Source: an uncultured Chloroflexia bacterium (GTDB lineage: Bacteria > Chloroflexota > Limnocylindria > Limnocylindrales > CSP1-4). From it: 64,000 nucleotides of DNA. The notes under the pieces are model-generated. The model made no database searches, was not told the origin of the DNA, and was given only the letters and a program-made list of their open reading frames with translations. This document shows, piece by piece, positions 1,939-37,170 of this stretch. Numbering within the stretch: the stretch's first letter is position 1; every line of letters starts with the position of its first letter. The position numbers and the translations under genes were made by a program. Where the stretch lies: contig CAVSMY010000010.1 of the NCBI GenBank assembly GCA_963729175.1, positions 491,262 through 555,261 of the forward strand, written 5' to 3'.

Positions 1939-3443
1939 CAGGCCGCGCCCGCGATGTCTGCGTCTGCCGTCAGGGCGGCCGGTGCGGTCTCCGGCGAGAC
2001 GGCGGGCGGCGGGACCGCGACCGGCGGCACTGCCGGTGGCGGCGTCCGGCGGACCCGGTTCCGCTCGAAGGCCGCGGTCAGCGCGGGACCGAACGGCGGC
2101 CGCAGCACCCCCTCGTCGGTCATGATCCCGGTGATCAGCTCCGCCGGCGTCACGTCGAAGGAGGGGTTGTAGGCCTCCGTCCCGACCGGGGCGACCTGGT
2201 GGCCGTGGAACTTCGTCACCTCGTCGGGCGAGCGGCGCTCGATCGGGATCGCGGCGCCGTCGGGCGTCTCGAGATCGACCGACGTCAGCGGCGCGCAGAC
2301 GAAGAACGGGACGCCGTGGCGGGCGGCGAGGACGGCCAGCGGATAGGTCCCGACCTTGTTCGCCGTGTCGCCGTTCGCAGCGATCCGGTCCGCCCCGACC
2401 AGGATCGCGTCGACCTTGCCGGCCGCGATGAGCGATCCCGCCGCGACGTCGGCGATCAGCGTGTGGGCGACGCCCGCCTGGGCCAGCTCCCAGGCAGTCA
2501 GCCGAGCGCCCTGGAGATACGGCCTCGTCTCGTCGACCCAGACATGGACGTCCCGGCCCTGGTGGTGGGCGACCTGGATGACCCCGAGCGCCGTCCCGTA
2601 CTGGCCGCAGGCCAGCGGTCCCGTGTTGCAATGGGTCAGCAGCTCGAGCGGCCGTCCGCCGATCGGCGGCAGGACGCTGGCCCCGAAGGTCGCCAGCCGG
2701 CCATGGTCGTCGGTCGCCTCGAACACGATCGCCTGGGCCTCGGCCCACAGGGCGTCGGCGATGACGTCACCGGAGGCATCGAGCCCGCCGACCCCCTCGT
2801 AGCGGGCGAGCATCCGGTCCATCGCCCAGCCGAGGTTGACGGCCGTCGGCCGGGTCTGGCGCAGCCCCGACGCCGCGCCGCGGATCGACGCCTGGCGTGG
2901 GTGGTTCTTCGTGTCCCGCAGACGGTTCGTCGTGAGGGCCAGGCCGATCGCGGCGACCTGGCCGATCGCCGGCGCGCCGCGGACCACCATGTCGCGGATC
3001 GCGTAGGCCACGTCGGCCGCGGAGCGAGCCTCGTACTCGACGAGCTCTCCAGGCAGCCGTCGCTGGTCGATGAGGTACAGGCTGGGGCCGTCCCAGCGGA
3101 ACGCGGTCCGGAAGCCGGTCGGGGCCCCGCCGACGGCCTGCATCTCCGGCTCTGGGCCCGCCGCCAGGCGCGCCGCCCCGCTCTCCGGATCGAGGATCGC
3201 GGCCGCGGCCTCCGCGGTCGAGCGCTGGAGGGCGTTCGCGACGCCCACGACGGTCGCGGCGGTCTGGGCGAGCTCGCCGGCGAACTGACGGAAGAACCGG
3301 CGCCGGGCCAGGTCCGCGCCCTCGGCGGGCGGCGCAGCCGGGGTCTCGGGCGTTGTCGCCGGCCCGGCGGTCGCCGTCGGCCCGGCCTCGGACGACTCGC
3401 CGGCGGTGGTCGGGTCTGGGTTCGGGTCGGCCGGTCCGGTCAT
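1938..3443 (-). CDS. mtnA: S-methyl-5-thioribose-1-phosphate isomerase with N-terminal extension
   Basis: MVVRGAPAIG, RPTAVNL, LTHCNTGPLA, DETRPYLQGARLTAWEL, GADRIAANGDTANKVGTY, NPSFDVTP. Confidence 0.95.
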
Positions 3444-3492
3444 CCGCGGGTCACGCTCGGGCGACGGCGTCTCGACAAGGGTTGCGACGCAT
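3440..3492 (-). other. Two chained minigenes MRRNPCRDAVARA* (3451-3492) and MTRG* (3440-3454) bridging apt to mtnA
   Basis: apt TGA/ATG overlap (TGATG), then GTGA, then ATGA with the mtnA start. Translation is inferred. Confidence 0.5.
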
Positions 3493-4012
3493 CAGTAGCG
3501 GATGACGCTCGTGACCTTGTGGCCCTCGAGGCGTTCGCGGCCCTTGAGGAAGTCGAGCTCCACGAGGAAGGCGAGCCCGGCGATCTCGCCCTGGAGCCGC
3601 TCGACGAGCTCGATCGTGCCCTTGACGGTGCCACCGGTCGCGAGCAGGTCGTCGACGATGAGGACCCGCTGCCCGGGGGCGATCCCGTCGCGATGGATCT
3701 CCAGGGTGTTCGAGCCGTACTCGAGGGCGTACTCGACCGACAGGACCTCCGCTGGCAGCTTGCCGAGCTTGCGGACCGGCACGAGCCCGGCGTCGAGCTG
3801 GTAGGCCATCGGGGCGCTGAAGATGAAGCCGCGGGATTCCATCCCGACGACGATGTCGACCTTGTCGTCCTTGTATGGCGCGAGCATCAGGTCGATCGCT
3901 TCCTTGAACGCCGGGCCGTCCTTCAGAAGCGTCGTGATGTCGTAGAAGAGGATGCCGGGCTTGGGGAAGTCGGGATCTCGCGGATCCGTGCACGCAGGTC
4001 CTCGGCGGACAT
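3492..4012 (-). CDS. apt: Adenine phosphoribosyltransferase (1-nt frameshift near 3972)
   Basis: ATG 4012 after GGAGG gives MSAEDLRARIREI; the next frame gives PDFPKPGILFYDITTLL...ESRGF...RKLGKLP...VDDLLATGGT. Span is 521 nt, one short of a codon multiple. Confidence 0.93.
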
Positions 4013-4182
4013 CGGTCGGGGTCCCTCCGGGTCGAACGGTCTCGATCGGTTCGGTGATCGTGGGGGCGGGACGGTCGCGCGCGCAGGCCGTTCTCGCGGA
4101 CGGTCAGTCTACTCGTCCGGACCGTCCGTGAGGAGCCTCTCCTCCGGCCCGCGACGTCGCCCGCGAGCACGAAGGGTGAGGG

Positions 4183-5640
4183 TCAGCCGGCTCGTGCGAC
4201 GGGGACCTGCTCCTCGTCGAGCGGGACGCCCGTCGTCGCGGGCGCCGGCCGCCGTCCGAGCCGGGTGCTGGCGATCGCGCCGAGGGCGAGGACGACCGTC
4301 CCGAGCGTGAAGGTTGCCGCGACGCCGTTCGCCTCCGGCGCCCCGCTCCGGATCGCGGCGGCGATGAGCGCGCCGCCGAGACCCGCTCCGAGGGCGGTCC
4401 CGATCGTGTCCGAGAGCTGGAGGCCGGACGTGGCGGCTCCTTGCGTCTCGGGCGGCGCCTCGCGCAGGACGACGATCGAGAGCGGCGAGTAGGACAGGCC
4501 CATCCCGAAGCCGGCGATGCCCCAGGTCACGATCGCCAGCTCCCACGGGATCCCAGGGGCGAGGACGGCGATCGTCGTCCCGAGCCCGATCGCGACCGTG
4601 GCGAACCCGACGCCGACGAAGCGGCGCGCCCCGAACCGGCCGAGGAACCGGGCCTGGACCCACGCCCCGCCGGTCCAGGTGAGCGTCGCGGAGGTCAGCA
4701 CCACGCCGGCCTCGATGGCGCTCGTGCCCTTCACGTCGATAAGCAGCAGCGAGACGTAGGCGTCCGCGGCGAAGAACCCGAACGTGAGGATCCCGCGCAG
4801 CCCGACCGCCGCCGGCAGCCCACGCGCCAGCCGGAGCGTGCCCGTCGGGACGAGCCGGATGAACGCCGGCAGCGCGATCGCCGCGCCGAGGACCGCCAGA
4901 CCGGCGATGAGGACGGGCTCCCCGGACGTGAGCCCGGCCATCAGGATGCCGACGCCGAGCGCGAGAAGGAGCGCCAGCGGGGCTCGCCGGCGCGCCTCCG
5001 CGCTCTGGTGCTCGCTCGGCGCGCCGTGCGGCACGGTGGCGATCGCCCGAAGCGTGATCGCGCCGGCGATGGCGATGAGCGGCAGCAGCCCGAGGAAGAC
5101 CCAGCGCCAGCCGACCGTCTCGCCGATGAGCCCGGCGATCGCCGGTCCGATGAGCCCGGGGATGACCCAGGCGGTCGAGAGGACCGCGAACATCCTGGGT
5201 CGCAGCCGGTCGGGCAGGGTCCGGGCGATCGCGACATAGGCGGTCGGTGGGACGGCGCCGAAGCCCAGGCCCTGGATGAACCGCCCGACGATGAGGACGG
5301 GCATCGACGGCGCGAGCCCGCCGATCAGCAAGCCCGTCGCGAAGAGCCCGAGCCCGAGTGCGAGCGGTCGTCGGAGCCCGCCGCGGTCGATGAGCCCGCC
5401 GACGAGCACGATGCCGATGAGCGAGCCGAGGAAGAACGCCGTGAAGACCCAGCCATAGAGGGTCTTGTCGCCGAGCTCATCGGCGACGAGCGGCATCACG
5501 GTGCCGATCGCGAGGGCCTCGGACGCGACGAGGGTGATGGTCAGGACGAGGCCGATCGTCAGCGCGCGACGGGGTGGCGCAAGCAGCCCGTCGCGGGCGT
5601 CGTCGCGCGGCGGATCGATGGCGGTCGGCGGGTCGGTCAC
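4183..5640 (-). CDS. MFS transporter (drug:H+ antiporter-like)
   Basis: About 14 hydrophobic segments; GGLIDRGGLRR, GRFIQGLG, GPAIAG, GWRWVF. Confidence 0.92.
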   Translation of the reverse strand: MTDPPTAIDPPRDDARDGLLAPPRRALTIGLVLTITLVASEALAIGTVMPLVADELGDKTLYGWVFTAFFLGSLIGIVLVGGLIDRGGLRRPLALGLGLFATGLLIGGLAPSMPVLIVGRFIQGLGFGAVPPTAYVAIARTLPDRLRPRMFAVLSTAWVIPGLIGPAIAGLIGETVGWRWVFLGLLPLIAIAGAITLRAIATVPHGAPSEHQSAEARRRAPLALLLALGVGILMAGLTSGEPVLIAGLAVLGAAIALPAFIRLVPTGTLRLARGLPAAVGLRGILTFGFFAADAYVSLLLIDVKGTSAIEAGVVLTSATLTWTGGAWVQARFLGRFGARRFVGVGFATVAIGLGTTIAVLAPGIPWELAIVTWGIAGFGMGLSYSPLSIVVLREAPPETQGAATSGLQLSDTIGTALGAGLGGALIAAAIRSGAPEANGVAATFTLGTVVLALGAIASTRLGRRPAPATTGVPLDEEQVPVARAG

Positions 5641-5695
5641 GGCGTGGCGGCCAGGTCGATCACGGCAGGGCGGCGAGGGCGGTCAGCGCGGTCAC
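5637..5695 (-). other. Two chained minigenes MTALTALAALP* (5660-5695) and MIDLAATP* (5637-5663) bridging VOC to MFS
   Basis: Three successive in-register GTGA overlaps at 5692-5695, 5660-5663 and 5637-5640. Confidence 0.5.
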
Positions 5696-6123
5696 GGGAT
5701 CGTGACCCGGCCGTCGGCATCGAGCGGGAAGAACGGGTTGTGGGCGACCTCCCAGGGATGGCCGTCCGGGTCGGCGAAGTAGCCGGACAGGCCGCCCCAG
5801 TCGGCGCGCGTCGCGGGCTTGAGGATCCGCCCGCCGGCGGCCTCGGCCGCCGCAAGACCGGCCCCGACCTCGTCCTCGGTCGCGACGTTCATCGCCAGGG
5901 TGATGCCGCCGAACGACTGCGGCCCCGGATCGGCGACGTTGGCATCGGCGGCGAGATCCGCCCGTCCGAAGATGCCGATGTACGAGCCGGTCATCCGGAA
6001 CCAGGCGATCTCGTCCTGGGAGGAGCTGCAGCGCTCCCAGCCGAGGGCCTCGTAGAAGGCGACCGACCGGGCGACGTCGGCGACGCCCAGGGTGACGATG
6101 CTGAGGCGAGCGGGGAGCGGCAT
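5692..6123 (-). CDS. VOC/glyoxalase family protein
   Basis: LSIVTLGVADVARSVAFYEALGW...WGGLSGYFADPDGHPWEVAHNP; GGAGG SD. Confidence 0.93.
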   Translation of the reverse strand: MPLPARLSIVTLGVADVARSVAFYEALGWERCSSSQDEIAWFRMTGSYIGIFGRADLAADANVADPGPQSFGGITLAMNVATEDEVGAGLAAAEAAGGRILKPATRADWGGLSGYFADPDGHPWEVAHNPFFPLDADGRVTIP

Positions 6124-6136
6124 GGGTCGTCCTCCG

Positions 6137-7114
6137 TCAGGTGCCGGCCAGGCGCTCGACGACCGGGGCCAGGTCGTCGATCGAGCCGGTGAGGAACGAG
6201 CTCACGCCGAGTCGCTGGCGGAGCATCCGGAACTTCTCGGTCAGCCCGTCGATCGAGCCGATGTAGATGTGCGGCGAATTGAGGAGGCCATCCTCGGTCA
6301 CCTCGATGCCCGTCCGGGTCTTGAACCGGTCGACGACCTTGCGGACCTCTGCCCGGGCGTGGTCGGTCACGATGATCGGCGAGCCGGACGGATAGACGTT
6401 GATCTCGAGCTCGGCATAGCGCTGCTCCCCGGCGGCTTCACGGACCCATCCGAGCTTCTCCTCGGCGGCCTCGATCGTCAGGCTGCGGGGGTCCGCCCGC
6501 GGCTGGCGCTGATCGCCGGGGACGAGGCGTGGCGCGAGCCCCACGATGTCCGCCTCGCGACCCGCGAGGGTCAGCGTCCGCTTCCCGCCACCCCCGATGA
6601 GGAACGGCGGATGGGGCCGCTGGACGGGCTTGGGCAGCCCATCGTGGTCGGTGATCGTGAAGTGCTCGCCCTGGAAGGAGAACGGGCCGTCGGCGAAGCA
6701 GCCCTTGAGGACCGCCATCGCCTCGGCGAGGCGAGAGACCCGCGTCCCGACCGCCTCGAACGCGAGCCCGATCGCGTCGTACTCCGGCCGGTTCCAGCCG
6801 GCGCCCATCCCGATGTCGAGGCGACCGCCTGACAGGCGGTCGAGCGTCGCCAGGTCCTGGGCCAGGACGGCCGGATGTCGCAGGTCGTTGTTGACGACGA
6901 ACGGCGCCAGTCGGATCCGCTCGGTCGCGGCGGCCACGTGGGAGAGCAGCGGGATCGGTGCGTACTGGTCGACGAGATGGTCCGGGATGATCAGCCCGGT
7001 GTAGCCCATCGACTCGGCCCGACGAGCCTCGGAGGCGACGACCTCCGGGTCGACGATCCCCTCGACCGCGTCGGCGAGGAACCGGAACGGGCGGGGATGC
7101 GCGGGATCGGGCAC
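6137..7114 (-). CDS. LLM-class, probably F420-dependent, oxidoreductase
   Basis: PDHL, LRHPAVLAQDLATLDRLSGGRLDIGMGAGW, PKPVQRPHPPFLIGGGG. Confidence 0.9.
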   Translation of the reverse strand: MPDPAHPRPFRFLADAVEGIVDPEVVASEARRAESMGYTGLIIPDHLVDQYAPIPLLSHVAAATERIRLAPFVVNNDLRHPAVLAQDLATLDRLSGGRLDIGMGAGWNRPEYDAIGLAFEAVGTRVSRLAEAMAVLKGCFADGPFSFQGEHFTITDHDGLPKPVQRPHPPFLIGGGGKRTLTLAGREADIVGLAPRLVPGDQRQPRADPRSLTIEAAEEKLGWVREAAGEQRYAELEINVYPSGSPIIVTDHARAEVRKVVDRFKTRTGIEVTEDGLLNSPHIYIGSIDGLTEKFRMLRQRLGVSSFLTGSIDDLAPVVERLAGT

Positions 7115-7117
7115 GAC

Positions 7118-7318
7118 TCAGTCGAAGTCGAAGATGCCGCGGCCCGCCGAGAACTGGAGGACCAGGCCGCAGTTCCGACAGATCTGGAGCACGAGCTTGT
7201 GGCTCGTGATCCCCCAGCGCGAGTCCATCCGACCCTGCTCACGGTCGAACTCGAGGCCTCCGCACAGGGGACATCGGAGCACCGGCTTGGCCGTCTCCTC
7301 GGCGTGCTCCCAGGTCAT
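7118..7318 (-). CDS. Small zinc-ribbon protein (66 aa)
   Basis: MTWEHAEETAKPVLRCPLCGG...ICRNCG; GGAGG SD. Confidence 0.75.
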   Translation of the reverse strand: MTWEHAEETAKPVLRCPLCGGLEFDREQGRMDSRWGITSHKLVLQICRNCGLVLQFSAGRGIFDFD

Positions 7319-7407
7319 CGGTCCCTCCGTTTCTCGGACGCGGACCGCGTCGGCGCGGTCACGGGCGACCGCGCTCCGACCTCGGTCCGCGGTGTCGCGG
7401 GTGATGA

Positions 7408-7436
7408 AGAAGCCCCCGGCACAGCCGAGGGCTTCT
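7408..7436 (-). terminator. Intrinsic terminator after the cold-shock gene
   Basis: AGAAGCCCTCGGC-TGT-GCCGGGGGCTTCT hairpin 22 nt after the stop. Confidence 0.7.
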
Positions 7437-7458
7437 GTCTTGGCGAGGTGTCCGACGC

Positions 7459-7680
7459 TCAGCCGGCGGCGACGCCGTTGGCGGCTCGGACGCCCGTTGC
7501 GCGGGGCCCCTTGGGGCTCTGCTCGACCTCGAACTCGACCTGCTCGCCGCCGAAGAGGCGATCGAAGTCGAGCGAGGCCTGCAGCCCGCTGCGATGGAAG
7601 AAGTAGTCCTTGCCGTCCTCGGCGGTGATGAAGCCGAAGCCGCGGTCGGACACAACCTTCTTGATGGTACCGGTGGCCAC
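7459..7680 (-). CDS. Cold-shock domain protein
   Basis: GTG start with GGAGG SD; MATGTIKKVVSDRGFGFI...DYFFHRS...VEFEVEQSPKGPRA. Confidence 0.95.
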   Translation of the reverse strand: MATGTIKKVVSDRGFGFITAEDGKDYFFHRSGLQASLDFDRLFGGEQVEFEVEQSPKGPRATGVRAANGVAAG

Positions 7681-16600: not shown

Positions 16601-17512
16601 CTCGATGCGGATCGGCAGCTCGGCCGACGGCGGGAACAGGTCGACGATGCCGCCACGGCGGGCGAACTCGCCGCGGCCGGCGACCTCGAGGACGGGCTGG
16701 TAGCCGGCGGCCAGGAGCTCGCGGAGGAAGACGGCCTGGTCGAGTCGCGCCCCGGTCCGGAGCCGTCGCGGCTCTGCGGGCAGATCGGCGGGCGCGATCG
16801 TGTGCTGGAGCAGGGCCTGGACGCTGGCGACGAGGACGCGCGCGGCACCGCTGCGCCAGGCCGAGAGGGCCGCGACGCGCGCGGCGGTCTCATCCGGCAC
16901 GAGCTCGCTCCGCTCGTAGGCCAGCGCCGTCCGCGGCTCGAGCACGGACACGACGCCGGGATCGCCGAGCCATGCCCCGAGCTCCTCGGCCACGCGATCG
17001 CCGATCTCCGCGTCACGAACGATCCAGCAGATGTCCTCGCCGGCGCCGACCAGCGCCGCGATGAGATAGCTCTTCGCTCCGTGGGGCACGGACGTCACCG
17101 AGGCATGCCGACCGCGGGGACGGGACGGCTCCTCGGGCCGGCCGAGTCGATCGCGCAGGTCGTCGAAGGCACCGGTCGTCCCGACGAGCCCGGGCAGCCC
17201 GGACAGGTCCGGCACGCGGCGACCGGCGCGGGGCCCGTCCGGCCGACCGACGATCCGGGCCGCCGCCTCACGGTCGTGGGCCACGCGCTCCTGATCGCGC
17301 GTCTCCCGGACCTGGATCTCCGCCTCGCGCGCTTCGCGCTCGCGGGCGAGCTCGACCTCCGCCTCGGCGCTCGCGCGGTCGAGGTCGACCTCGGCCTCGG
17401 CGCGCTCCGCCGCCGCGCGGCGCTCGGCCCATTCGAGGGCCACCTTCTCGGCGAGTCGGCGCTCGCGGGTCGTCCGCCCTCGGATCGGCTCGCCGGCTCG
17501 GCGTTCGGTCAT
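13598..17512 (-). CDS. mfd: Transcription-repair coupling factor
   Basis: RGGIVDLFP, GDLVVHIDHGIARY, GDVGYGKTEVALRAAF, DEEQRFGV, SATPIPRTL, QLRGRVGR, DLEIRGAGNILG. Confidence 0.97.
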   Translation of the reverse strand: MTERRAGEPIRGRTTRERRLAEKVALEWAERRAAAERAEAEVDLDRASAEAEVELAREREAREAEIQVRETRDQERVAHDREAAARIVGRPDGPRAGRRVPDLSGLPGLVGTTGAFDDLRDRLGRPEEPSRPRGRHASVTSVPHGAKSYLIAALVGAGEDICWIVRDAEIGDRVAEELGAWLGDPGVVSVLEPRTALAYERSELVPDETAARVAALSAWRSGAARVLVASVQALLQHTIAPADLPAEPRRLRTGARLDQAVFLRELLAAGYQPVLEVAGRGEFARRGGIVDLFPPSAELPIRIELFGDEVDSLRRFDPADQRTIGPVDEITLLPATEFLRPEGGDAVLEERLGRRAARLPERLAADLARLTGDGAGGHGAGGHGAGRDGAGGDATRGPRETTDRALAIGDAAEIWAPLIAPATGLDHLAAETLIVLDEPGDVADAAAFLWRQADERRDELVAAGELPKDWPVTYLPPRDWKARLLGARTLELTWETDPPEGASMAAGGLSAGDAFGWREPTLPPARSARLGQAIEGWFEDGARVILASDQAPRLAELLSEAGHPAGPTLRIREAPPPGSVSLVERSLNGGFAGGPDGLVLVTDRELFGSVRVRRPKALRRVVPRDILERLTPGDLVVHIDHGIARYEQMLRRSGGTGDDRDFLELSFAAGDRIFVPVEQIARVSRYSGGERPQLSRLGGTDWQRTKQRVRKAVDDLAEELLALYAARADAPGHAFSPDTPWQAELEASFPYEETPDQLRAIAETKSDMEAGRPMDRLVVGDVGYGKTEVALRAAFKAIQDGRQVAVLVPTTILADQHHRTFSQRLGAFPTTVRLLSRFVSGSDQERTLVGLADGSVDLVIGTHRLLSKDVAFRDLGLVVVDEEQRFGVAAKERLKRLRREVDVLTLSATPIPRTLNLALAGVRDLSVIETPPEDRLPIQTRVAEASAGLVRDAILRELDRGGQVFYVHNRVETIEPQAEQIRRMLPDARIVVGHGQMTEGALEKVMTGFAAGDADVLVCTTIIESGLDIPNANTIIIDRADALGLAQLYQLRGRVGRSARRAYAYLLYRRRERMSDEARKRLQAIFNASELGAGFQIALADLEIRGAGNILGGEQSGHMAAVGFDLYSRLLAEAVEERKAHHEGRTPVLERPQAVLDLPLEAHLPDDYVPDEAQKLELYRRLARARHPGDVAAFRQELVDRFGPLPTPVQRLVEVAELRLVAESAGVSSISREDGLLIVRFGASLSRATAMQLLGGFSGQSVLPGVRPGDLTFASNQVRIRLPRDPAKSWTLTQAVVARLSAGG

Positions 17513-17574
17513 CGTCGATCGCCCGTCATCGTCGGTCGCCCGTCATCGTCGGTCGCCCGTCATCGTCGCTCGCC
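17508..17574 (-). repeat. 17-bp tandem repeat x4 encoding three chained MTGDRR* minigenes between pth and mfd
   Basis: Unit ATGACGGGCGACCGACG; ATGs at 17563, 17546, 17529 and 17512 (mfd), each overlapped by the previous TGA. Confidence 0.9.
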
Positions 17575-28648: not shown

Positions 28649-29007
28649 CCGGGCGGCCAGGTGAACGACCGACCACCCATCAGGTGAACGTGGAGATGGT
28701 CGACCGTCTGTCCGCCCCAGCGGCCGACGTTCGAGACGAGCCGGTAGCCCGCATCGGCGATGCCCTCCGACCGGGCGATCTCGGCCGCAGCAGCGAACAG
28801 CCGGCCGACCATCGGCGCGTCGGCGTCGGTCAGGTCGGCCGCGGACGCGATGTGGGCCCGGGGCAGCAGCAGGATGTGCGTCGGCGCTCGCGGGTTGATG
28901 TCCCGGATCGCGATGACGAGATCGTCCTCGTGGACCTTCGTCGAGGGGATCTCCCCGGCGACGATGCGGCAGAACAGGCAATCGGACACGTCGGTCACGT
29001 CAGACAT
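28645..29007 (-). CDS. Histidine triad (HIT) protein
   Basis: CLFCRI, RDINPRAPTH, GQTVDHLHVHLMGGR. Confidence 0.96.
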   Translation of the reverse strand: MSDVTDVSDCLFCRIVAGEIPSTKVHEDDLVIAIRDINPRAPTHILLLPRAHIASAADLTDADAPMVGRLFAAAAEIARSEGIADAGYRLVSNVGRWGGQTVDHLHVHLMGGRSFTWPPG

Positions 29008-29037
29008 GGTGGCTCTCCGGGCTCGGTCGGGCGCCGC

Positions 29038-29499
29038 TCACCATAGCGCCGGCTTCGTCGACATGAGAAAGGCGATCAGGCCGATCGCGGTCGTGATCCC
29101 GTAGGCGAGGTAGCGCTGCCGTCGGGCGCTCTCGCGCCAGGCCTTCTGTTCCGCGTCGGTCTTGCCGCGCCCCCGGCCGAGGAGTCGCTGCAGCTCCGGC
29201 CGCTGGATCGCGTAGGCGACGATCGCGGTGACGGCATACAGGACCAGGGCGACCATGAGCCACGGCTGCTCGAGCAATTGCGGCCCGAGGACCGCGACCA
29301 TCGCGAGCCCGGTCGCCGCCAGCCCGATGCCGATGACGAACGTCCCGTGGGTCTGGAGCCACACGAGTCCGCGCACGAACCGGCTCGGCGGGCGCGTCGC
29401 ATCGCGCGACCGGAGCGTGAACGGCAGGATCAGGCTCGGGACGAGCAGGGCGATCGCCAGCGAGATGTGCGAGGCGAGAAGAAGGGGGAACAACGGCAT
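29038..29499 (-). CDS. Four-TM membrane protein (DUF2269-like)
   Basis: MPLFPLLLASHI...PWL...FLMSTKP; TACAAT 10 nt upstream. Confidence 0.75.
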   Translation of the reverse strand: MPLFPLLLASHISLAIALLVPSLILPFTLRSRDATRPPSRFVRGLVWLQTHGTFVIGIGLAATGLAMVAVLGPQLLEQPWLMVALVLYAVTAIVAYAIQRPELQRLLGRGRGKTDAEQKAWRESARRQRYLAYGITTAIGLIAFLMSTKPALW

Positions 29500-30538: not shown

Positions 30539-31674
30539 CCCTTCTTCTTGGCCTTGCCGAACAGGCCGAGGATCCCGCCGCCGTCAAGGACCTCCTCGCC
30601 GGTCGCCCCCGCATAGGCCTCGAGTGCCTCCCGCTGGGCCTTGTCGAGCTTGGTCGGGACCGCGACGTCGACCATCACGTGGAGGTCTCCGCGGGCGTTC
30701 GCGCGTCGGAGGTGTGGGACCCCGCGACCGCGCAGCCGGATCTCGGTCCCGGGCTGCGTCCCGGGCTTGATCTCGACCTCCTCCTCGCCGTCGACGGTCG
30801 GGACCTTCACCCTCGTCCCGAGGGCGGCCTGGGCGAGGCCGACCGAGAGCTCATAGAACAGCTCGGTCCCCTCGCGCCTCAGGGACGGATGGGGCAGGAC
30901 GTGGACCGCGACATAGAGGCTGCCCGCGGGTCCGCCGCGGGGCCCGGGCTCGCCCTCGCTGGAGAGGCGGATCTGGTGGCCGTCGTCGATGCCGGCCGGG
31001 ATCGTCACCCGGAGGGTCCGCTTGCGCTCGGTCCGGCCGTCGCCCTTGCAGGTCTCGCAGGGCTGGTCGATGATCTTGCCTTCGCCATGGCAGCGCGGGC
31101 AGGCCGACACGTTGACCATCTGGCCGAGCATGGTCTGGCGGACCGAACGGACCTCGCCGCGGCCTTCGCACTGAGGACACGTCGAGGAGCTCGTCCCAGG
31201 CGCCGAGCCGCTGCCCTGGCAGGTGTCGCAGCGGCCGAGGGCTCGGAACTCGATCTCCTTCTCGGTCCCCTTGATGGCCTCCTCGAACGTGATCCGAAGG
31301 TCGTAACGGAGGTCGGAGCCGGCCGGCGGTCGGCCCCGTCGGGATGCGCCGCTGGCGCCAGCCGCACCGCCGAAGAAGGCATCGAAGATATCGCCGAGGC
31401 CGCCGAACCCGGAGAAGCCGTCGGCACCGCCCCCGGCATCCGCGCCACCCAGACCCGCCCGCCCGAACATGTCGTAGGCCTGGCGGCGCTGGGGATCGGA
31501 CAGGACCTGGTAGGCCTCGTTGATCTCCTTGAAGCGCGCCTGCGCCTCGGGCGTCGTGTTGACGTCCGGATGCCACTGCTGGGCGAGCTTGCGGAACGCC
31601 TTCTTGATCTCGGCGTCGCTCGCGCCGCGCTCGACCCCGAGCACGTCGTAATAGTCGGTCTCCACGGTGGCCAC
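30535..31674 (-). CDS. dnaJ: Chaperone DnaJ
   Basis: J domain with HPD, G/F region, four CxxCxGxG motifs. Confidence 0.98.
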
Positions 31675-31748
31675 GTCGCGATTCTACGGGAGCGGCCCGG
31701 CTGCGCCGACAGCTACCGCGTGGACCGCGAAAGACCGAGGATGGAGCG

Positions 31749-32219
31749 ATGACGACGCCTGCACCCGGTGGTGACCCGACGAGCCCCGAGGCGCTCCTCT
31801 CGGAGCTTCGGGCATCGACCGCCGAGGTCGCCACGATCGCCGCGGAGCTGGGGCCCGACGGCCGGGCTCGCCGGGCGGCGGCAGGCGAGTGGACCGTCCA
31901 GGAGACGCTCACCCACCTGGCCGCCTCCGAGCCGCCGTTCCGCCGTAGGCTCGACAGGATCCTCGAGGAGGACCACCCGTTCCTGCCGTGGTTCGGGCCG
32001 GACGTCGCCCGACCCGATACGGCGCTTCCGGCTGACGCGGTGACCTGCTTCGTGGCGGCCCGCGAGGATCTCGTCGCGTTCCTCGTCGCGCTGACGCCGG
32101 AGGGCTGGGCCCGGCCGGCGGTCCACGAGACGATGGGCCCGACGACGCTCGCGCTTCAGATCCGGAACATCCTCGACCACGACCACGAACATCTCGAGGA
32201 GCTCCGTCGATGCCGCTGA
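31749..32219 (+). CDS. DinB family protein
   Basis: GEWTVQETLTHL...HDHEHLEEL. Confidence 0.85.
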   Translation: MTTPAPGGDPTSPEALLSELRASTAEVATIAAELGPDGRARRAAAGEWTVQETLTHLAASEPPFRRRLDRILEEDHPFLPWFGPDVARPDTALPADAVTCFVAAREDLVAFLVALTPEGWARPAVHETMGPTTLALQIRNILDHDHEHLEELRRCR

Positions 32220-32238
32220 CCGGGAGGAGGCCGACCCG

Positions 32239-33066
32239 ATGACCGACGTTCCACGCCTGACCGTCGCCCTGACGTTCGACCACGACGCGATCTCCAATTC
32301 CGTCAGACGGGGCGATCCGCCGGTGAAGCTCTCGCATGGCGAGTTCGGCGCCCGCGTCGGCGTCCCGCGGATCCTCGAGCTCCTGGCCCGCGAGGACATC
32401 CCGGCCACCTGGTTCGCCCCGGGTCACTCGCTCGAGACGTTCCCGGAGACGGCTGCGGGGATCATCGCCGGCGGCCACGAGCTCGCCAGCCACGGCTGGT
32501 ACCACGAGGACTTCGCCGAGCTGTCGGTCGAAGAGCAGCGGGAGATCCTCGACCGCTCGGTCGCCCAGGTCCGCGATCTGACCGGAGCGCCGCCACAGGG
32601 GTTCCGCGCGCCGTACTGGTCACTGGGGGCCCAGACCCTCCAGCTCGTCGAGGCCGCCGGGTATCGCTACGACAGCTCGTTGATGGCCGACGACCACCGG
32701 CTCTATCTGGTCCGCCAGGGCGATCACCATTCGGTCGCCGAGGGCACGCGATGGGGACGCCAGGGCTCGATGGCGGAGGTGCCCATCTCCTGGACCCTCG
32801 ACGACTGGCCGTATTTCGAGCCCGGGCCGGGTCGCGACGGACTGTCGGCACCGTCCCGGGTGCTCGAGATCTGGACCGCCGAGCTCCGCTACGCCCACGC
32901 CCACTCGCCCGGCGGGCTGCTCACCGTGACGATGCACCCCGAGTGCATCGGCCGCGGTCACCGGATGGCGATGCTCGAGGCGTTCATCGCCGAGGCTCGG
33001 TCGCTGGAGGGCGTGGCCTTCGAGCGGCTCGACCGCGTCGTGGAGGCGTGGCTGGCCCGATCCTGA
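32239..33066 (+). CDS. Polysaccharide deacetylase family (PgdA/PuuE-like)
   Basis: LTFDHD, VGVPRIL, HELASHGWYH, GFRAP, YDSS, MHPECIGR. Confidence 0.9.
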   Translation: MTDVPRLTVALTFDHDAISNSVRRGDPPVKLSHGEFGARVGVPRILELLAREDIPATWFAPGHSLETFPETAAGIIAGGHELASHGWYHEDFAELSVEEQREILDRSVAQVRDLTGAPPQGFRAPYWSLGAQTLQLVEAAGYRYDSSLMADDHRLYLVRQGDHHSVAEGTRWGRQGSMAEVPISWTLDDWPYFEPGPGRDGLSAPSRVLEIWTAELRYAHAHSPGGLLTVTMHPECIGRGHRMAMLEAFIAEARSLEGVAFERLDRVVEAWLARS

Positions 33067-33084
33067 GCGGTCGCTCCGAGGAAC

Positions 33085-34785
33085 TCACGGTGCGGGCAGC
33101 CAGGTCGGCTCTTCCAGATGCTCCCCCGGCTCACCGATCGGCAGCTGCATGGCGTCGGTGCCGTCGGCGCGCATGACCCATAGCCGACTGACGTTGCCCG
33201 TGACTCGGCTGAAGACGATCCACTGACGATCCGGCGACCACCAGGGATGACTGTCAGACGTCTCCCGGGACACCTGTTCGAGGCCGGCGCCATTCACCCC
33301 GATCGTCCAGATGCCATTCCGGTTCGTCGCGCGCTCGAGTCCATCGAACGCGATCCGTTGGCCATCCGGAGACCATGCTGGCGCGAAGACGTCGAAGCCG
33401 TGCGTGAGCTGGATGCCGTCGATCTGGGCCTCACCGGCGAACGGGACCACCCACAGGTCGCCGGGCCGATCCCGGCTGAAGCCCCTCGACGGTTCGCCCC
33501 CGCCGACATCCCGGGCCACGAGGATCTCGCGTCCTGATGGCGACACCTCAGCGTCAGTCCCCTCGAGCCCGATCGGCCGAACGGCCCCGCCGCCCGCGTC
33601 GAGCACGCGATGGGGCGTCTTGAGGTCCGGATCGTAGGCGCCGATGACGGACTTCATGAGCAGGAGGTCGCCATCCGCGAGCCAGCTCTCGATCCCGGCC
33701 GGCCAGAGGGGCTCGCCACCGTCGAAGGTGTCACTCGTGTAGTGGGATGCTCCCGGCCACGTCACCGGCGCGGCGCCATCGAGCGTCCCGACCCATACGC
33801 CATAGGCGTTCGAGTAGGCGATGCGTCGTGAATCCACCGATGGGGCATACGAGTCCACGTCGAAGAACAGGTCGGACACCTCGTCGGCGTGCGAACCATC
33901 CGGGTATGCCCACCAGACCTGATGCCGGAGCTGGCCCTGCCCGTCGATCTGGCGGCTGAGGTACACGATGGCGCCCGGGAGATCCGATGCCGAGATCCTG
34001 GTCTCCGACGGGGACGGCGTGGGGAGCGTCGAGCCGCCAGAGCCGACGGTCGGGCTCGGGCTCGACCCGTTCGTGCCCGTGGGCCGCATCAGGACTAAGC
34101 CTGCCAACGGACCGACCAGGCCGATGATGACGACGACCCCTGCCCCCGCGGCGATGTACCGCCAGCGGCGCAGGCCGCTGGACCGGGACCCTGCTCGCGT
34201 CACCCTGGATGCGACCGTCGTCGGCGACACGGCGAACAGCTCGTACGGCTCGGCGATCCCCTTGAGGCGGGGTCGGCCTCGGGACCGGAACGAAACGTCG
34301 AGGGTCGTGCGCACCAGTGAACGCACGGTGTCGGTCACAAGGACCTCGCCCGGCGCGGCCACCGAGCAGACGCGGGCGGCGACGTTCACGGCCGAGCCGA
34401 CGAAGCCGTCGCCATCCTCGACCGACTCACCGGCGTGGATACCAACGCCGACGCGGATCGGCCGAGCGGGCTCCTCGGAGCTCGATCGGGCAGCCGTCTC
34501 GACGATGGCCAGGCCGCAGCGGACGGCGGCGCTCAGCGAGCTGAAGACGACATAGAAGCTGTCGCCCTCGGTCCGGATCTCACCGCCTCCGGTCGAGGCG
34601 AGAGCCTCACGGACGAGCACGCGATAGGCGGTCAGCAGGTCTGCCGCGGCGCGGTCGCCGTTGGTCTCGGCGAATGCCGTGTAGTCACGCAGGTCACAGA
34701 ACAGGAACCCGCGCGTCGTCCCGGACTGCGAGGGATCCCCGACCCCGGGTGGTCGGGTCGGTGCGAGATCGTCGACATCCCCCAC
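33085..34785 (-). CDS. Class III nucleotide cyclase - TM - TolB-like (PD40) propeller protein
   Basis: FLFCDLRDYT, RTEGD, VGIHAGE, VNVAARV; TM; PAWSPDG and PWWSPDR repeats; GTG start 6 nt after TATGAT. Confidence 0.85.
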   Translation of the reverse strand: MGDVDDLAPTRPPGVGDPSQSGTTRGFLFCDLRDYTAFAETNGDRAAADLLTAYRVLVREALASTGGGEIRTEGDSFYVVFSSLSAAVRCGLAIVETAARSSSEEPARPIRVGVGIHAGESVEDGDGFVGSAVNVAARVCSVAAPGEVLVTDTVRSLVRTTLDVSFRSRGRPRLKGIAEPYELFAVSPTTVASRVTRAGSRSSGLRRWRYIAAGAGVVVIIGLVGPLAGLVLMRPTGTNGSSPSPTVGSGGSTLPTPSPSETRISASDLPGAIVYLSRQIDGQGQLRHQVWWAYPDGSHADEVSDLFFDVDSYAPSVDSRRIAYSNAYGVWVGTLDGAAPVTWPGASHYTSDTFDGGEPLWPAGIESWLADGDLLLMKSVIGAYDPDLKTPHRVLDAGGGAVRPIGLEGTDAEVSPSGREILVARDVGGGEPSRGFSRDRPGDLWVVPFAGEAQIDGIQLTHGFDVFAPAWSPDGQRIAFDGLERATNRNGIWTIGVNGAGLEQVSRETSDSHPWWSPDRQWIVFSRVTGNVSRLWVMRADGTDAMQLPIGEPGEHLEEPTWLPAP

Positions 34786-34848
34786 CCCGCCATCATATGC
34801 GTCGATCACGCCCACGCATGCGCACCCGGTCAGCTGCGCCGCCCCGCG

Positions 34849-35547
34849 TCACGCCTCCGCGACGGTGCGAGTGCGCCGAAGGACCGCCTCGAGCATCGCC
34901 GGGGTCAGCTTGCCAGTGAACGTGTTCTGTTGGCTCGGGTGGAATGAGCCGAGGAGCACGTACGGTCCGACGGTCGCCTCCGCCGCATGCCCGAAGCGCG
35001 GGCGAGGCCGAGCCGCCGGAACGCCCGATGACGCGAGGGCCCGCAGTGCGCCATCCCAGGCGAACGCCCCGAGCGCGACGATGACCCGCAGCCTCGGCAG
35101 CAGCCCGATCTCGCGGACGAGGTACGGCAGGCAGCGGTCGCGCTCCTCCGGTGTCGGCTTGTTCGCCGGCGGCGCGCATCGGACGACCGCCGCGACACGC
35201 GCGCCGGTCAGCACCAGCCCATCGCCGGCTCGGACCGAGGTCGCCTGGTTCGCGAACCCCGCGGCATGAAGAGCATCGAACAGGAAGTCACCCGAGCGGT
35301 CGCCGGTGAAGACCCGCCCCGTCCGATTGCCGCCATGGGCCGCCGGCGCGAGACCCACGATCAGCACCGCCGCGTCTGGGTCCCCGAACCCCGGGACAGG
35401 TCGGCCCCAGTAGGTCTCATCCCGGAACCGCGCGACCTTCTCCGCGGCAACCTGCTCGCGCCAGGCGACAAGCCGGGGGCAAGCGCGGCACGCCGTCACC
35501 TCCGCGTCCAGCCTGTCGAGCCCCGCCGCGAGCTCCGCCCGGCTCAC
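34849..35547 (-). CDS. Uracil-DNA glycosylase family 5 (UdgB-like)
   Basis: CRACPRL, GLAPAAHGGNRTGRVFTGDRSG, RCAPPANKP, HPSQQN. Confidence 0.93.
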   Translation of the reverse strand: MSRAELAAGLDRLDAEVTACRACPRLVAWREQVAAEKVARFRDETYWGRPVPGFGDPDAAVLIVGLAPAAHGGNRTGRVFTGDRSGDFLFDALHAAGFANQATSVRAGDGLVLTGARVAAVVRCAPPANKPTPEERDRCLPYLVREIGLLPRLRVIVALGAFAWDGALRALASSGVPAARPRPRFGHAAEATVGPYVLLGSFHPSQQNTFTGKLTPAMLEAVLRRTRTVAEA

Positions 35548-35554
35548 CGCCGGG

Positions 35555-36364
35555 TCACGTCCGCAACAGCCCGTCCAACCGACGTCCGGCGATCGTCAGC
35601 CCGACCACGCCCATGATCAGGAGGTAGGCGATGTGGACGAGGATCGTCGCGTCGACGCTGCCGGTCGTTAGCTGCCGAAGCATCGCGACGCCCTGGTACA
35701 GCGGCGTCACCTCGACCAGCAGCCGGAGGGCCGGTGGGTACGCCGTGATCGGGTAGAACGTCGCCGAGAAGAGGAACAGCGGCAGGGTGATGACGATGAT
35801 GAAGTCGAAGTCCTGCCAGGTCCGGATGAACGTCGTGCCGGCCATCCCGACGGCGCCGAAGGCGAACCCGATGAGCAACGCGCCGGGGATGCACAGGATG
35901 GCCAGCGGCGACGTCGCGAGCCCGAGGAGCACGATCACGACGAAGAAGCCGATCGCGTAGAGCGCACCGCGGATCAGCGAGAAGCCGATCTCGCCGGTGG
36001 CGATGTCGCGGACACCCATCGGCGTCGACAGGATGGCGTCGTACGTCTTGGCATAGCGGAGCTTGAAGAAGACGTTGAACGTCGACTCGTAGACCGCGCC
36101 GTTCATCGCCGAGGTCGCCAGCAGGCCCGGCGCGACGAACACCGCGTACGGGATCGGCTGGCCGTCGGGTCCCGGCACGGAGCCGATCAGCGCCCCGAGC
36201 CCGAACCCGATGCCGACGAGATAGAAGAGCGGCTCGAAGAAGCCCGACAGGAGCACCAGCGGCGTCCGTCGGTAGTTCATGAAGGAGCGCTCGATCATCC
36301 GGTCGGCGCGCGGCGCGAACGGCAGCCCGGGCAAGATCCGCGTCGTCGGCGTCAGGCTCGTCAT
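35555..36364 (-). CDS. ABC-2 type permease (NodJ-like)
   Basis: FFEPLFYL, FVAPGLLA, YDAILSTP, LFSATFYP. Confidence 0.92.
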   Translation of the reverse strand: MTSLTPTTRILPGLPFAPRADRMIERSFMNYRRTPLVLLSGFFEPLFYLVGIGFGLGALIGSVPGPDGQPIPYAVFVAPGLLATSAMNGAVYESTFNVFFKLRYAKTYDAILSTPMGVRDIATGEIGFSLIRGALYAIGFFVVIVLLGLATSPLAILCIPGALLIGFAFGAVGMAGTTFIRTWQDFDFIIVITLPLFLFSATFYPITAYPPALRLLVEVTPLYQGVAMLRQLTTGSVDATILVHIAYLLIMGVVGLTIAGRRLDGLLRT

Positions 36365-37128
36365 GTCACGAGCGCCCGGCGGAAGGTGACCAGCGCGGCG
36401 GTCGAACCGGCGGCGACGAACAGCAGCAGGACGGCCACGTCGAGGATCGCCAGCGGGTCGACGACGCCGAGCGTCAACGAGCGGGTCAGTCGGACGCCGT
36501 GCCACAAGGGTGTGAACGCGGCCAGGATCCGGAGCGGCTCGGGCAGCTGGTCGATCGGGAAGAACGTGCCCGAGAGGATGAACAGCGGCGTCAGCCCGAA
36601 CCGAAAGATCATCGTGAAGCCCTGGTCGTTCTGTTGCGTCGCGGCGTACGCCAGGATCGGCGCGGCGAACGCGAGGCCGGTCAGGACCGCGGCCGGCAAG
36701 GCCAGGATCGCCAGCGGCGAGCTGACGAGCCCGAACAGGGTCATGACCAGCAGGAACGCGCCGCACGACAGGCACAGCCGGGCGGCGATCCAGGACAGCT
36801 CGCCGTAGACGATGCCGCGGATCGTGATCGGCGTCGCCAGCATGCCGTGGTAGATCCGATCCCACCGGATCCGGCTCATGATCGTGTATGTCGAGGCGAA
36901 CCCGCCGGTCTGCATCGCCGCGGCGGCGAGCAACCCTGGTGCGAGCCAGGCGGCGTAGGTGACACCGCCGAACGCGTCGCTCGCGCCGCTCCCGACGAAC
37001 GCGCCCAGCCCGAACCCGAGCGAGGCGAGGAACAGGACCGGCGAGAGGAAGTTCGTGACGATGCCGCCGCGCCAGGTGCGGCGATAGACGCGGCCGTTGA
37101 ACTCGAGGACGCGGGCGGTCGCCGTCAT
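36361..37128 (-). CDS. ABC-2 type permease (NodJ-like)
   Basis: PVLFLASLGFGLG, LAPGLLA, LSGTFFPIDQLP. Confidence 0.92.
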   Translation of the reverse strand: MTATARVLEFNGRVYRRTWRGGIVTNFLSPVLFLASLGFGLGAFVGSGASDAFGGVTYAAWLAPGLLAAAAMQTGGFASTYTIMSRIRWDRIYHGMLATPITIRGIVYGELSWIAARLCLSCGAFLLVMTLFGLVSSPLAILALPAAVLTGLAFAAPILAYAATQQNDQGFTMIFRFGLTPLFILSGTFFPIDQLPEPLRILAAFTPLWHGVRLTRSLTLGVVDPLAILDVAVLLLFVAAGSTAALVTFRRALVT

Positions 37129-37170
37129 CGGGACGCCGTCATCGGGACGCCGTCATCGGGAGGCGCTCAC
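37121..37170 (-). repeat. 14-bp tandem repeat encoding chained minigenes MSASR*, MTASR*, MTASR*
   Basis: Starts at 37170 (GTG, overlapping the ATPase stop), 37156, 37142 and 37128 (permease). Confidence 0.88.

Follow-up and report, generated by a model that had tools for sequence, protein, structure and literature searches.

Multi-link minigene chains at operon junctions, mostly as tandem duplications of gene overlaps, and a candidate register constraint on short spacers

Six same-strand gene junctions, all on the minus strand and each read there directly, are considered in the window (the whole stretch of 64,000 nucleotides that was analysed). The gene names at these junctions are upheld by Pfam and NCBIfam profile matches, and the same-strand spacers, which measure 7-51 nt, suggest that the joined genes are co-transcribed. 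The features are as follows.

3440-3494, minus strand: apt>mtnA junction, without a repeat
3494-3492, minus strand: apt stop (TGATG)
3492-3451 and 3454-3440, minus strand: apt>mtnA minigenes of 13 and 4 codons
3443-3441, minus strand: mtnA start ATG
5631-5695, minus strand: VOC>MFS junction, a degenerate 23-nt repeat with three GTGA motifs
5694-5692, minus strand: VOC stop
5695-5660 and 5663-5637, minus strand: VOC>MFS minigenes
5640-5638, minus strand: MFS start GTG
17508-17574, minus strand: pth>mfd array, 3.9 copies of a 17-nt unit (CGACGATGACGGGCGAC type) with four ATGA motifs
17562-17560, minus strand: pth stop, the first TGA of the array
17563-17543, 17546-17526 and 17529-17509, minus strand: three 6-codon minigenes (MTGDRR) of pth>mfd
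17512-17510, minus strand: mfd start, the last ATG of the array
29000-29041, minus strand: DUF2269>HIT junction, a 13-codon ORF from the GTGA of the DUF2269 stop (29040-29038)
35544-35558, minus strand: permease>udg single link, one 4-codon minigene (35558-35544)
35557-35555, minus strand: permease stop (GTGA) before udg
35547-35545, minus strand: udg start GTG
37120-37170, minus strand: ABC ATPase>permease junction, 3.0 copies of a 14-nt unit (CCCGATGACGGCGT) and an older, diverged first unit
37169-37167, minus strand: ATPase stop
37170-37153 (VSASR), 37156-37139 and 37142-37125 (both MTASR), minus strand: ATPase>permease minigenes
37128-37126, minus strand: permease start ATG after the ABC ATPase

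The first-pass annotation had described these spacers as tiled by tiny ORFs, each starting inside the previous stop and the last one ending on the start of the next gene, and five of the six are exactly as it had them. Direct reading of the minus strand gives two links at apt>mtnA (TGATG, then GTGA, then ATGA), two at VOC>MFS (GTGA throughout), three at pth>mfd (ATGA throughout), one at permease>udg and three at ABC ATPase>permease, with a 4-nt (RTGA) or 1-nt (TGATG) stop/start overlap at each link. DUF2269>HIT misses this strict definition; the TGA that closes its minigene (29002-29000) coincides with neither of the two possible HIT starts, one being an ATG at 29007, 5 nt upstream of that TGA and with a GGAG-type SD, and the other a GTG at 28998, 1 nt downstream of it. 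The stop codons and the ATGA/GTGA motifs were taken straight from the sequence. Alignments in relatives reach query residue 1-10 for Mfd, residue 2 for the permease, residues 3-6 for MtnA and residues 11-18 for the MFS protein, and this homology supports the downstream start calls. The apt ORF lacks its N-terminal part and matches the APRT model (172 positions) only from 44 to 170. Three of the junctions are tandem repeats according to TRF: 17508-17574 (17 nt x 3.9, 96% match), 37120-37161 (14 nt x 3.0, 100% match) and 5631-5685 (23 nt x 2.4, 81% match). The earlier reader had overlooked tandem repeats in three of the four multi-link spacers of the window.

All genome-wide counts come from a purpose-made, crude gene caller with imperfect start calls, by which coding density is only 0.80 in the genome containing the window (G000; 73.66% complete, 19 contigs) vs 0.89-0.93 in its relatives. 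In G000 it yielded 2227 same-strand pairs, with 918 spacers in the range of 5-150 nt; dinucleotide shuffling of the spacer interiors, repeated 300 times, served as the chance control. A complete chain of at least one link is present in 72 of the 918 spacers (57.7 +/- 3.2 after shuffling), chains of at least two links in 12 (2.15 +/- 1.35) and chains of at least three in 5 (0.19); none of the 300 shuffles reached the observed count in any of these classes. Multi-link chains are thus more frequent than chance predicts, as had been proposed, but the three that are not repeats are at chance level. Multi-link chains connect distinct, real genes elsewhere in G000 also, and are found in 12 of 918 spacers there vs 3 of 732 in the relatives. 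Four of the 12 sit in the window, which is atypical of its genome in this respect. The accompanying claim that the downstream genes lack an SD is true of five of the six window junctions but does not extend to the genome, where relays show no association with SD absence: an SD-like match, 4 nt or longer, is present at 42% of the 12 multi-link and 48% of the 60 single-link junctions of G000, at 47% of its 846 relay-free spacers and at 50% of its 395 overlaps of -4.

Most multi-link chains have a simple origin. Eight to nine of the 12 are TRF arrays in which the unit contains RTGA and the period is 3n-1 (26, 17, 14, 23, 17, 20, 20 and 25, the last being 11+14), and from such a unit and period a chain arises automatically. 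These chains are therefore tandem duplications of the junction itself rather than independent designs. Such arrays lie between same-strand genes at three sites in the window and five to six elsewhere in G000, two of them within two-component operons, and their minigenes run from ATG to TGA over 5-9 codons, each overlapped by the next as ATGA or GTGA. The units (14-26 nt) are locus-specific and resemble the local upstream-gene tail plus ATGA; units of different loci have only the start context ATGAC(G/C) in common. Short tandem repeats are unusually abundant in G000, where the density of high-scoring arrays within CDS is 29.4 per Mb, vs 1.5-6.2 in G014, G005 and G010. The pth>mfd array is also present on an independent 266-nt metagenome contig (three substitutions, no gaps), the single contig spanning it, which has the same four ATGA copies; the unit variant sits in a different unit, a possible sign of array turnover.

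Of 13 pth>mfd loci in relatives, nine join the two genes directly by a 4-nt RTGA overlap, and L002 has one 29-nt link. Of 13 ATPase>permease loci, five show such a direct RTGA overlap and two TGATG, and the closest relative, G001, has one 8-nt link. Given these direct overlaps, the G000 chains at both junctions are lineage-specific expansions, derived from ancestral ordinary 4-nt overlaps. The apt>mtnA chain is absent from all relatives examined, where the apt stop reads TACTGA, and it is probably a chance product because of this absence and because three non-repeat chains are close to the shuffled 2.15. The permease>udg link is not conserved at the orthologous junction of G010 (TAG stop, 2-nt gap), and the eight relatives examined show no synteny of VOC and MFS. 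Altogether, relay conservation between genera was seen in 0 of about 12 comparisons.

In mycobacterial interspersed repetitive units (MIRUs), the ORFs overlap both flanking genes. The earlier reader knew of no description of the chains as a general architecture, but MIRUs already have it: passages of PMC12548453, which cites Supply et al. (1997) as ref. 77, present each MIRU as holding an ORF that is coupled, at -4 spacing, to the gene downstream, and MIRUs as a dispersed and seemingly mobile family with insertion at start codons. A table in PMC3558156 gives a unit range of 51-77 bp, with 53 bp at seven and 77 bp at two of 12 loci, both 3n-1. The founding locus lies between the sensor kinase and response regulator genes senX3-regX3, according to a passage of PMC9392950. 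G000 arrays and MIRUs alike are tandem direct repeats in intercistronic operon spacers, with a small ORF per unit, a 4-nt overlap with the next ORF or gene and unit lengths that are mostly 3n-1, and the two G000 arrays in two-component operons share the operon type of senX3-regX3. On the other hand, G000 units are 14-26 nt long (about 50-80 bp in MIRUs), and they vary by locus and copy the local junction, whereas MIRUs form a dispersed family of shared sequence.

Beyond the arrays, a register signal depends on whether the upstream stop can also act as a start. Of 206 junctions with an RTGA stop, 59 (28.6%) have a -1-frame ORF from that stop whose end coincides exactly with the called start of the next gene, vs 57 of 464 (12.3%) for YTGA controls (OR 2.87, p=7.6e-7), and the contrast is present separately in G000 (35/119 vs 30/240) and in relatives (24/87 vs 27/224). 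Conversely, this ORF overruns the start into gene B at 32 of 206 RTGA and 159 of 464 YTGA junctions (OR 0.35). RTGA-to-RTGA gaps of 5-60 nt number 10, 37 and 13 for gap mod 3 of 0, 1 and 2 in G000 and 0, 24 and 5 in relatives (2.4 Mb); non-R-stop gaps of the same lengths number 41, 49 and 37 in G000 and 45, 45 and 32 in relatives (2.4 Mb). The in-register share is 69% at RTGA-stop junctions vs 40% (62/154) at YTGA-stop junctions. Eight changes linking a -4 overlap and a spacer with RTGA at both ends avoid, without exception, the register that would lead out of frame into gene B. RTGA stops followed by a non-RTGA start are in excess at gap mod 3 = 2, which looks like miscalled overlaps. The RTGA signal fits selection on termination-reinitiation register, and suggests that in this bacterial family ribosome restarting constrains which spacers survive. 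The earlier reading is partly supported: chains are present, the multi-link ones outnumber those in shuffles, and the register signal requires a start codon, in G000 and in relatives. A link of relays to SD absence, their conservation between genera and an independent design of the multi-link chains find no support.

Termination-reinitiation coupling (Huber et al. 2019, PMC6728339; 2023, PMC10666635) uses the same 4-nt or 1-nt overlap as each link here, and the ancestral state of two G000 junctions (pth>mfd and ATPase>permease) is such an overlap. A gap of about 20 nt abolishes this coupling in E. coli and H. volcanii, according to the abstract of PMC10666635, and this strong dependence on distance explains why coupling across a spacer would call for an in-register minigene; the passages of PMC10666635 that were searched make no mention of bridging minigenes. 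The published pairs are two real genes, whereas here serial ORFs of 4-13 codons occur, for which a product function is unlikely. The contrast between RTGA and YTGA registers can be read as an indirect evolutionary sign that translation of downstream genes may depend on upstream translation by the same ribosome. A short ORF whose stop overlaps a gene start also drives translation in upstream-ORF coupling and bicistronic designs, an arrangement possibly widespread and used in biotechnology (a passage of PMC12548453). Relay ORFs share this overlap with the downstream start; they differ in that they would be started by termination of the upstream gene, not from a ribosome-binding site of their own, and in that several are chained.

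The explanation toward which these data lean, if only somewhat, has two layers: a general register constraint, which we infer, and a lineage-specific tandem duplication of overlap junctions, which is directly visible in G000. In these high-GC actinobacterial genomes, a stop codon after A or G (RTGA) doubles as a start codon, and ribosomes terminating there could restart one base back. Short spacers would then survive mainly in two cases, either when the resulting tiny ORF ends exactly on the next RTGA start (3n-1 register) or when restarting ribosomes are already in the frame of the downstream gene; spacers by which they would enter that gene out of frame would be depleted. Duplication of an ancestral 4-nt overlap in G000 with a period of 3n-1 gives each copy an ATGA or GTGA, and hence a chain of identical minigenes. 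The multi-link "relays" are on this view young expansions of ordinary overlap junctions that have passed the register filter, sharing the MIRU architecture rather than being separately evolved regulatory devices; ribosomes may pass along such chains.

A less probable, though possible, account is that the pattern is a neutral by-product only, in which tandem duplication and gene-end evolution act in GC-rich codon structure through -4-overlap microhomology, upstream truncation at hidden xTG-Axx stops and a lineage-specific bias in duplication length; minigenes would then have no useful ribosome use, and downstream genes would initiate independently. This account draws on the 3n-1 rule of G000 being followed where no restart is possible, namely at convergent gene ends, without a start codon or downstream gene, and in arrays with CTGA or TAG units (unit identity at least 0.75; conv-Y 1, 1, 7 and same-Y 6, 2, 6); units without any stop triplet follow it too (35 vs 18). 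The register bias of arrays is therefore due in part to another cause. Codon-phase microhomology at -4 overlaps, which favours 3n-1 lags 1.4-2.4 fold, is a neutral contribution. The slight in-register excess at YTGA stops, the lack of conservation between genera, the equal presence of SDs and the chance-level number of non-repeat chains are also as this account would have them. Against it, the register preference needs a start codon, and the excess of exact links replicates in relatives, where arrays are rare. Under a neutral relic model, R and Y should be about equally frequent (1:1), given hidden-stop R fractions of 0.49 and 0.54, whereas the in-register excess amounts to 47 (R) and 16 (Y), about 3:1. 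Microhomology, with a bias of about 2:1, also falls short of the 61:10 seen between registers 1 and 0.

A bolder extension of the two-layer explanation is speculative and rather doubtful. If termination-reinitiation is efficient enough in high-GC Actinobacteria, in-register minigenes could be a general, selected coupling after insertions that split overlaps. In repeat-prone lineages, copy-number changes of 3n-1 junction repeats (micro-MIRUs) could then set downstream/upstream protein ratios, such as kinase:regulator in two-component systems, in the manner of a rheostat that is both heritable and reversible. As a further possibility, selection for stops that catch -1-frame ribosomes may underlie the 3n-1 rule at start-less gene ends. 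It is unlikely that the chains are adaptive relays throughout, selected to pass ribosomes to SD-less genes with link number setting output as a variable-number rheostat. The start-codon-dependent signal, the window genes without an SD-like match, the arrays in two-component operons, where protein ratios matter, and the shifted unit variant are in keeping with such relays, and MIRU copy number may alter downstream gene expression (a passage of PMC3635867). Yet genome-wide the chains are not associated with SD absence, they are young, lineage-specific, unconserved and nearly confined to the repeat-rich G000, 3n-1 arrays also occur where no downstream gene exists, and the sole spanning metagenome contig has an identical copy number; tuning of output by link number, as first suggested, finds no support in this analysis. 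Finally, an artefact of wrong gene or start calls or of MAG assembly is very improbable, for although G000 is incomplete and fragmented, its called coding density is low, the apt ORF is truncated and start calls are approximate, the motifs were read directly, the Mfd, permease and MtnA starts have homology reaching residues 1-10, an independent contig carries the pth>mfd array and the register signal replicates in relatives of higher coding density.

Should the register signal persist once start sites are curated, it would be a genome-wide evolutionary footprint of restarts at RTGA stops, would imply that restarting is frequent enough here to shape which spacer lengths survive, and would bear on the open dispute over post-termination ribosome behaviour. 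Duplication of an overlap junction is a simple candidate origin for MIRU-like elements, as it leaves both proteins intact and, provided that the period is 3n-1 and only then, would keep them coupled. For annotation, in-register short intergenic ORFs should not be called genes. For expression design, natural chains of one to seven minigenes offer test cases for the signal lost per restart; a seven-link chain would deliver few ribosomes unless every step were highly efficient.

All six junctions lie on the minus strand, and Pfam and NCBIfam agree with the gene names at each of them. A link is a minigene whose start overlaps the previous stop, and a relay or chain of such links bridges a spacer; in the motif RTGA, a TGA stop preceded by A or G doubles as a start. 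A base-by-base reading recovers the number of links reported by the first-pass annotation at five junctions. The single link reported at DUF2269>HIT falls away, as the TGA of the minigene overlaps neither of the two candidate starts. The starts of Mfd, the permease and MtnA are sound, since alignments to relatives extend to residues 1-10, 2, and 3-6, respectively. Three of the spacers contain tandem repeats (detected with TRF), which the first-pass annotation did not mention.

Links and tandem repeats at the six junctions of the window
pth>mfd spacer, minus strand: 3 links; 17-nt tandem repeat, 3.9 copies, 96% match
ABC ATPase>permease spacer, minus strand: 3 links; 14-nt tandem repeat, 3.0 copies, 100% match
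VOC>MFS spacer, minus strand: 2 links; degenerate 23-nt repeat
apt>mtnA spacer, minus strand: 2 links
permease>udg spacer, minus strand: 1 link
DUF2269>HIT, minus strand: no link to ATG 29007 (GGAG Shine-Dalgarno, SD) or to GTG 28998

Each unit of the three arrays carries an ATGA or GTGA. When such a unit has a period of 3n-1, its ATG opens a frame that the TGA of the following unit closes, and identical minigenes (MTGDRR, MTASR) automatically form a chain.

Two further observations concern the same genes. The apt ORF (3492-3887, minus strand) aligns with the 172-position APRT models over positions 44-170 only; approximately 43 N-terminal residues are out of frame, so that the assembled apt gene carries a frameshift or a truncation. 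The leader of the ABC ATPase gene (gene start 38201) contains six units of mixed length, 15/14 nt, that follow the pattern GGTGGCATGGCG(A)CA at 38282-38373 (minus strand), each with an ATG and none with a TGA, and a 31-nt array of 3.5 copies (38538-38647) occupies the same divergent intergenic region.

The window comes from contig 10 (positions 491262-555261) of a 3.54 Mb assembly with 71.5% GC, 19 contigs and a completeness of 73.66% by marker genes. The comparison genomes (relatives) represent other genera of one family, none being from the genus of the window genome. Every genome-wide count rests on a crude, purpose-written gene caller, which uses codon log-odds trained on long high-GC3 ORFs, keeps the start with the highest score and settles overlaps by a greedy rule. 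Among 2227 same-strand pairs in the window genome, 395 share a 4-nt overlap and 918 are separated by spacers of 5-150 nt. Complete chains from stop to called start were found in 72 of these 918 spacers (60 with one link, 7 with two, 4 with three, and 1 with seven). In 300 dinucleotide shuffles of the spacer interiors, which hold gap length and flanks constant and are thus blind to any register preference, 57.7 ± 3.2 spacers had at least one link (72 observed), 2.15 ± 1.35 had at least two (12 observed) and 0.19 had at least three (5 observed). The window alone holds one third of the multi-link chains (two or more links).

The first-pass annotation considered four multi-link chains in 64 kb hard to attribute to chance. 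Numerically this stands, and the cause is duplication. Eight of the 12 multi-link chains coincide with a TRF array (periods 26, 17, 14, 23, 17, 20, 20, and 25, the last comprising two RTGA spaced 11 and 14), a ninth shows an 8-nt duplication by inspection, and the three repeat-free chains, including apt>mtnA, agree with chance expectation.

With TRF run in the same way on each genome and a minimum array score of 70, the window genome has 29.4 arrays/Mb within called CDS, almost all with periods that are multiples of 3 (99, 2, and 3 arrays for period mod 3 = 0, 1, and 2), and 29.9 arrays/Mb outside CDS (46, 16, and 44). The corresponding inside/outside densities in relatives are 3.8/8.8 (G014), 6.2/18.8 (G005), and 1.5/1.5 (G010), while 120 kb of a fourth, G011, is apparently repeat-rich too. 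Overall, high-scoring short tandem repeats per Mb are approximately 5-20 times as frequent in the window genome as in three relatives. In keeping with their lower repeat load, multi-link chains are correspondingly scarce in the relatives (3 of 732 spacers, 0.77 expected). One of these is a 17-nt GTGA array of approximately 5 units and 3 links (G010, C2:556560-557675 region); junction arrays thus occur beyond the window genome, though much more rarely.

In relatives, pth and mfd are joined by a direct RTGA stop/start overlap at 9 of 13 loci, three others have CTGA stops and other arrangements, and the closest relative has a single 29-nt link. ATPase>permease is joined by a direct RTGA overlap at 5 of 13 loci and by TGATG at 2; the closest relative has a single 8-nt link, and the remaining loci have a CTGA or TAG stop followed by an SD-bearing gap. 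The direct overlaps and single links at these orthologous junctions indicate that the arrays of the window genome arose by lineage-specific expansion of ordinary overlap junctions; the array unit consists of approximately the last 13 nt of the upstream gene plus ATGA. The apt>mtnA chain was not found in any relative examined, nor was VOC-MFS synteny. A public soil-metagenome contig of 266 nt covers the whole pth>mfd array without gaps, which supports the array as real. Among the metagenome contigs, which leave parts of the stretch uncovered, it is the only one to span the array; it differs by 3 substitutions, two of which shift a unit variant from the last to the preceding unit, and the array may be turning over.

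Further multi-link arrays in the window genome join distinct genes: GH3>SIS, PNP>LLM, RNase H>TPR, and two pairs that both lie within two-component operons.

Multi-link arrays in two-component operons of the window genome
C11:33834-33917 (L193), histidine kinase>LuxR-type regulator: 7 links, 25-nt unit with GTGA and ATGA
C12:36019-36072 (L195), OmpR-type regulator>kinase: 2 links, 20-nt unit

Arrays of the window genome that duplicate a stop codon in phase favor periods of 3n-1 (32 arrays) over 3n (15) and 3n+1 (0). Examples are C9:229823-229900, C18:49060-49132, C17:49171-49235, and C12:542815-542860. A TRF-free census, based on the closest near-copy of a 12-nt stop word at a unit identity of at least 0.75, gives 21, 10, and 4, two of the 3n+1 cases actually being 3n-1 structures. 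A census of start-anchored duplications in leaders yielded too few cases (approximately 5). The bias extends beyond junctions capable of relaying, to convergent gene ends (conv-Y class, 1, 1, and 7 for period mod 3 = 0, 1, and 2), CTGA units and three TAG arrays, and is weaker in units without any stop triplet (35 vs. 18). In CTGA and TAG units an overlapping start is impossible. Since the same bias occurs at sites that cannot relay, array period alone is no evidence for selected relays. The rule is specific to the window genome, as it was not replicated in 2.4 Mb of relatives (2, 2, and 2 among 2235 stops).

Three sources of this period bias were considered. A duplication in the tail of the upstream gene could bring a hidden TGA in frame, and this fits the minority of arrays in which the second copy is the in-frame stop. 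As a main cause it is rejected, because it is the first copy that supplies the in-frame stop in approximately 22 of 32 arrays, in-phase upstream copies are rare (3), and some genes end identically to their orthologs. Microhomology flanking stops favors 3n-1 just 1.4-2.4 fold and only at 4-nt overlaps; at convergent ends the ratio is 0.6-0.95, so there is no such preference there, and microhomology fails as the full cause. A general excess of -1-frame stops beyond gene ends is weak (79/89/109 convergent, 246/234/273 same-strand). As a source of the junctions themselves, broken genes are ruled out for the 10 proteins checked.

A separate signal, dependent on the start codon, is found in spacer register. 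Among gaps of 5-60 nt flanked by RTGA on either side, as upstream stop and as downstream start, the counts at gap mod 3 = 0, 1, and 2 are 10, 37, and 13 in the window genome and 0, 24, and 5 in relatives; with an upstream stop other than RTGA, they are 41, 49, and 37, and 45, 45, and 32, respectively. The preference persists after duplication-like junctions are dropped (9, 29, and 10). As an internal control of the same geometry, the -1-frame ORF was traced from every xTGA stop, with YTGA (C or T first) as the comparison. The end of this ORF coincides exactly with the called start in 59 of 206 RTGA cases vs. 57 of 464 YTGA cases (OR 2.87, p = 7.6e-7), an excess found both in the window genome (35/119 vs. 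30/240, p = 1.4e-4) and in relatives (24/87 vs. 27/224, p = 1.8e-3). Conversely, it passes the start and enters the following gene in 32 of 206 RTGA vs. 159 of 464 YTGA cases (OR 0.35). Links could also be neutral relics of ancestral overlaps in which a -1-type frameshift made the upstream gene end early, at a hidden xTG-Axx stop. However, such relics should follow RTGA and YTGA stops about equally (the R fraction of hidden stops is 0.49 and 0.54), and the in-register excess is 47 R vs. 16 Y.

In our reading of these sequence comparisons, restarting at RTGA stops is visible to selection, and ribosome restarting probably constrains the spacers. Splitting of an overlap junction into an in-register spacer would then be a tolerated outcome, and in-register relays would be transient states rather than conserved devices. 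Across 280 conserved adjacent pairs, relays interconvert chiefly with 4-nt overlaps. None of 8 overlap-to-spacer transitions is in the register that would lead out of frame into the next gene, and none of the single-link relays is conserved across genera. At same-strand junctions of the window genome and relatives, RTGA stops paired with a non-RTGA start accumulate at gap mod 3 = 2 (11, 13, and 34 in relatives), the register in which the RTG at the stop shares the frame of the downstream gene; probably the caller set the start of genuine 4-nt overlaps too far downstream in such cases.

The first-pass annotation also associated relays with missing SD sequences. Most of the six downstream genes do lack an SD-like match, but there is no genome-wide association: matches of at least 4 nt precede 42% of genes after multi-link chains (n = 12), 48% after single links (n = 60), 47% after relay-free spacers (n = 846), and 50% at 4-nt overlaps (n = 395). 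The original observation is largely correct and its interpretation partly right, in that restarting is the probable constraint, but it errs in taking multi-link chains for independent, tuned devices tied to absent SDs.

A "relay race" model exists for plant pararetrovirus translation. The term itself is absent from PMC5902531. In Escherichia coli and Haloferax volcanii, Huber et al. (2023; PMC10666635) report that gaps of approximately 20 nt nearly abolish termination-reinitiation coupling, which would explain why an in-register minigene matters. The first-pass annotation knew of no description of relays as a general architecture; the architecture is known in kind from the MIRUs, described in a 2025 review of translational coupling as repeats inserting at start codons (PMC12548453, citing Supply et al., 1997). 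In one table (PMC3558156), MIRU units measure 53 bp at 7 of 12 loci and 77 bp at 2 of 12, both 3n-1, and 77-bp repeats are placed between senX3 and regX3 in a passage of PMC9392950. The arrays in the two-component operons share this type of locus. Unlike MIRUs, the units here are 14-26-nt micro-repeats of the local junction and not members of a dispersed family, and their host is not a mycobacterium; the family-wide register statistic is also an addition. A limited literature search, without supplements, found no earlier description of that statistic, of bacterial chains of bridging minigenes, or of a 3n-1 rule for junction repeats.

The 3225 genes called in the window genome cover 80% of the sequence, compared with 89-93% in relatives with the same caller, and frameshifts, pseudogenes or assembly indels may be the source of the lower coding density. 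At 41007-43715, long ORFs on opposite strands overlap (833 aa, minus strand; 608 aa, plus strand), and the caller places no gene at 41890-43598; either a frameshift in a gene or a shortcoming of the caller may account for this. The ORF at 60844-62010 (minus strand) contains long in-frame repeats at 60904-61192 and 61249-61450 (105 nt, 2.8 copies, 97% identity; 54 nt, 3 copies), which indicate a repetitive protein.
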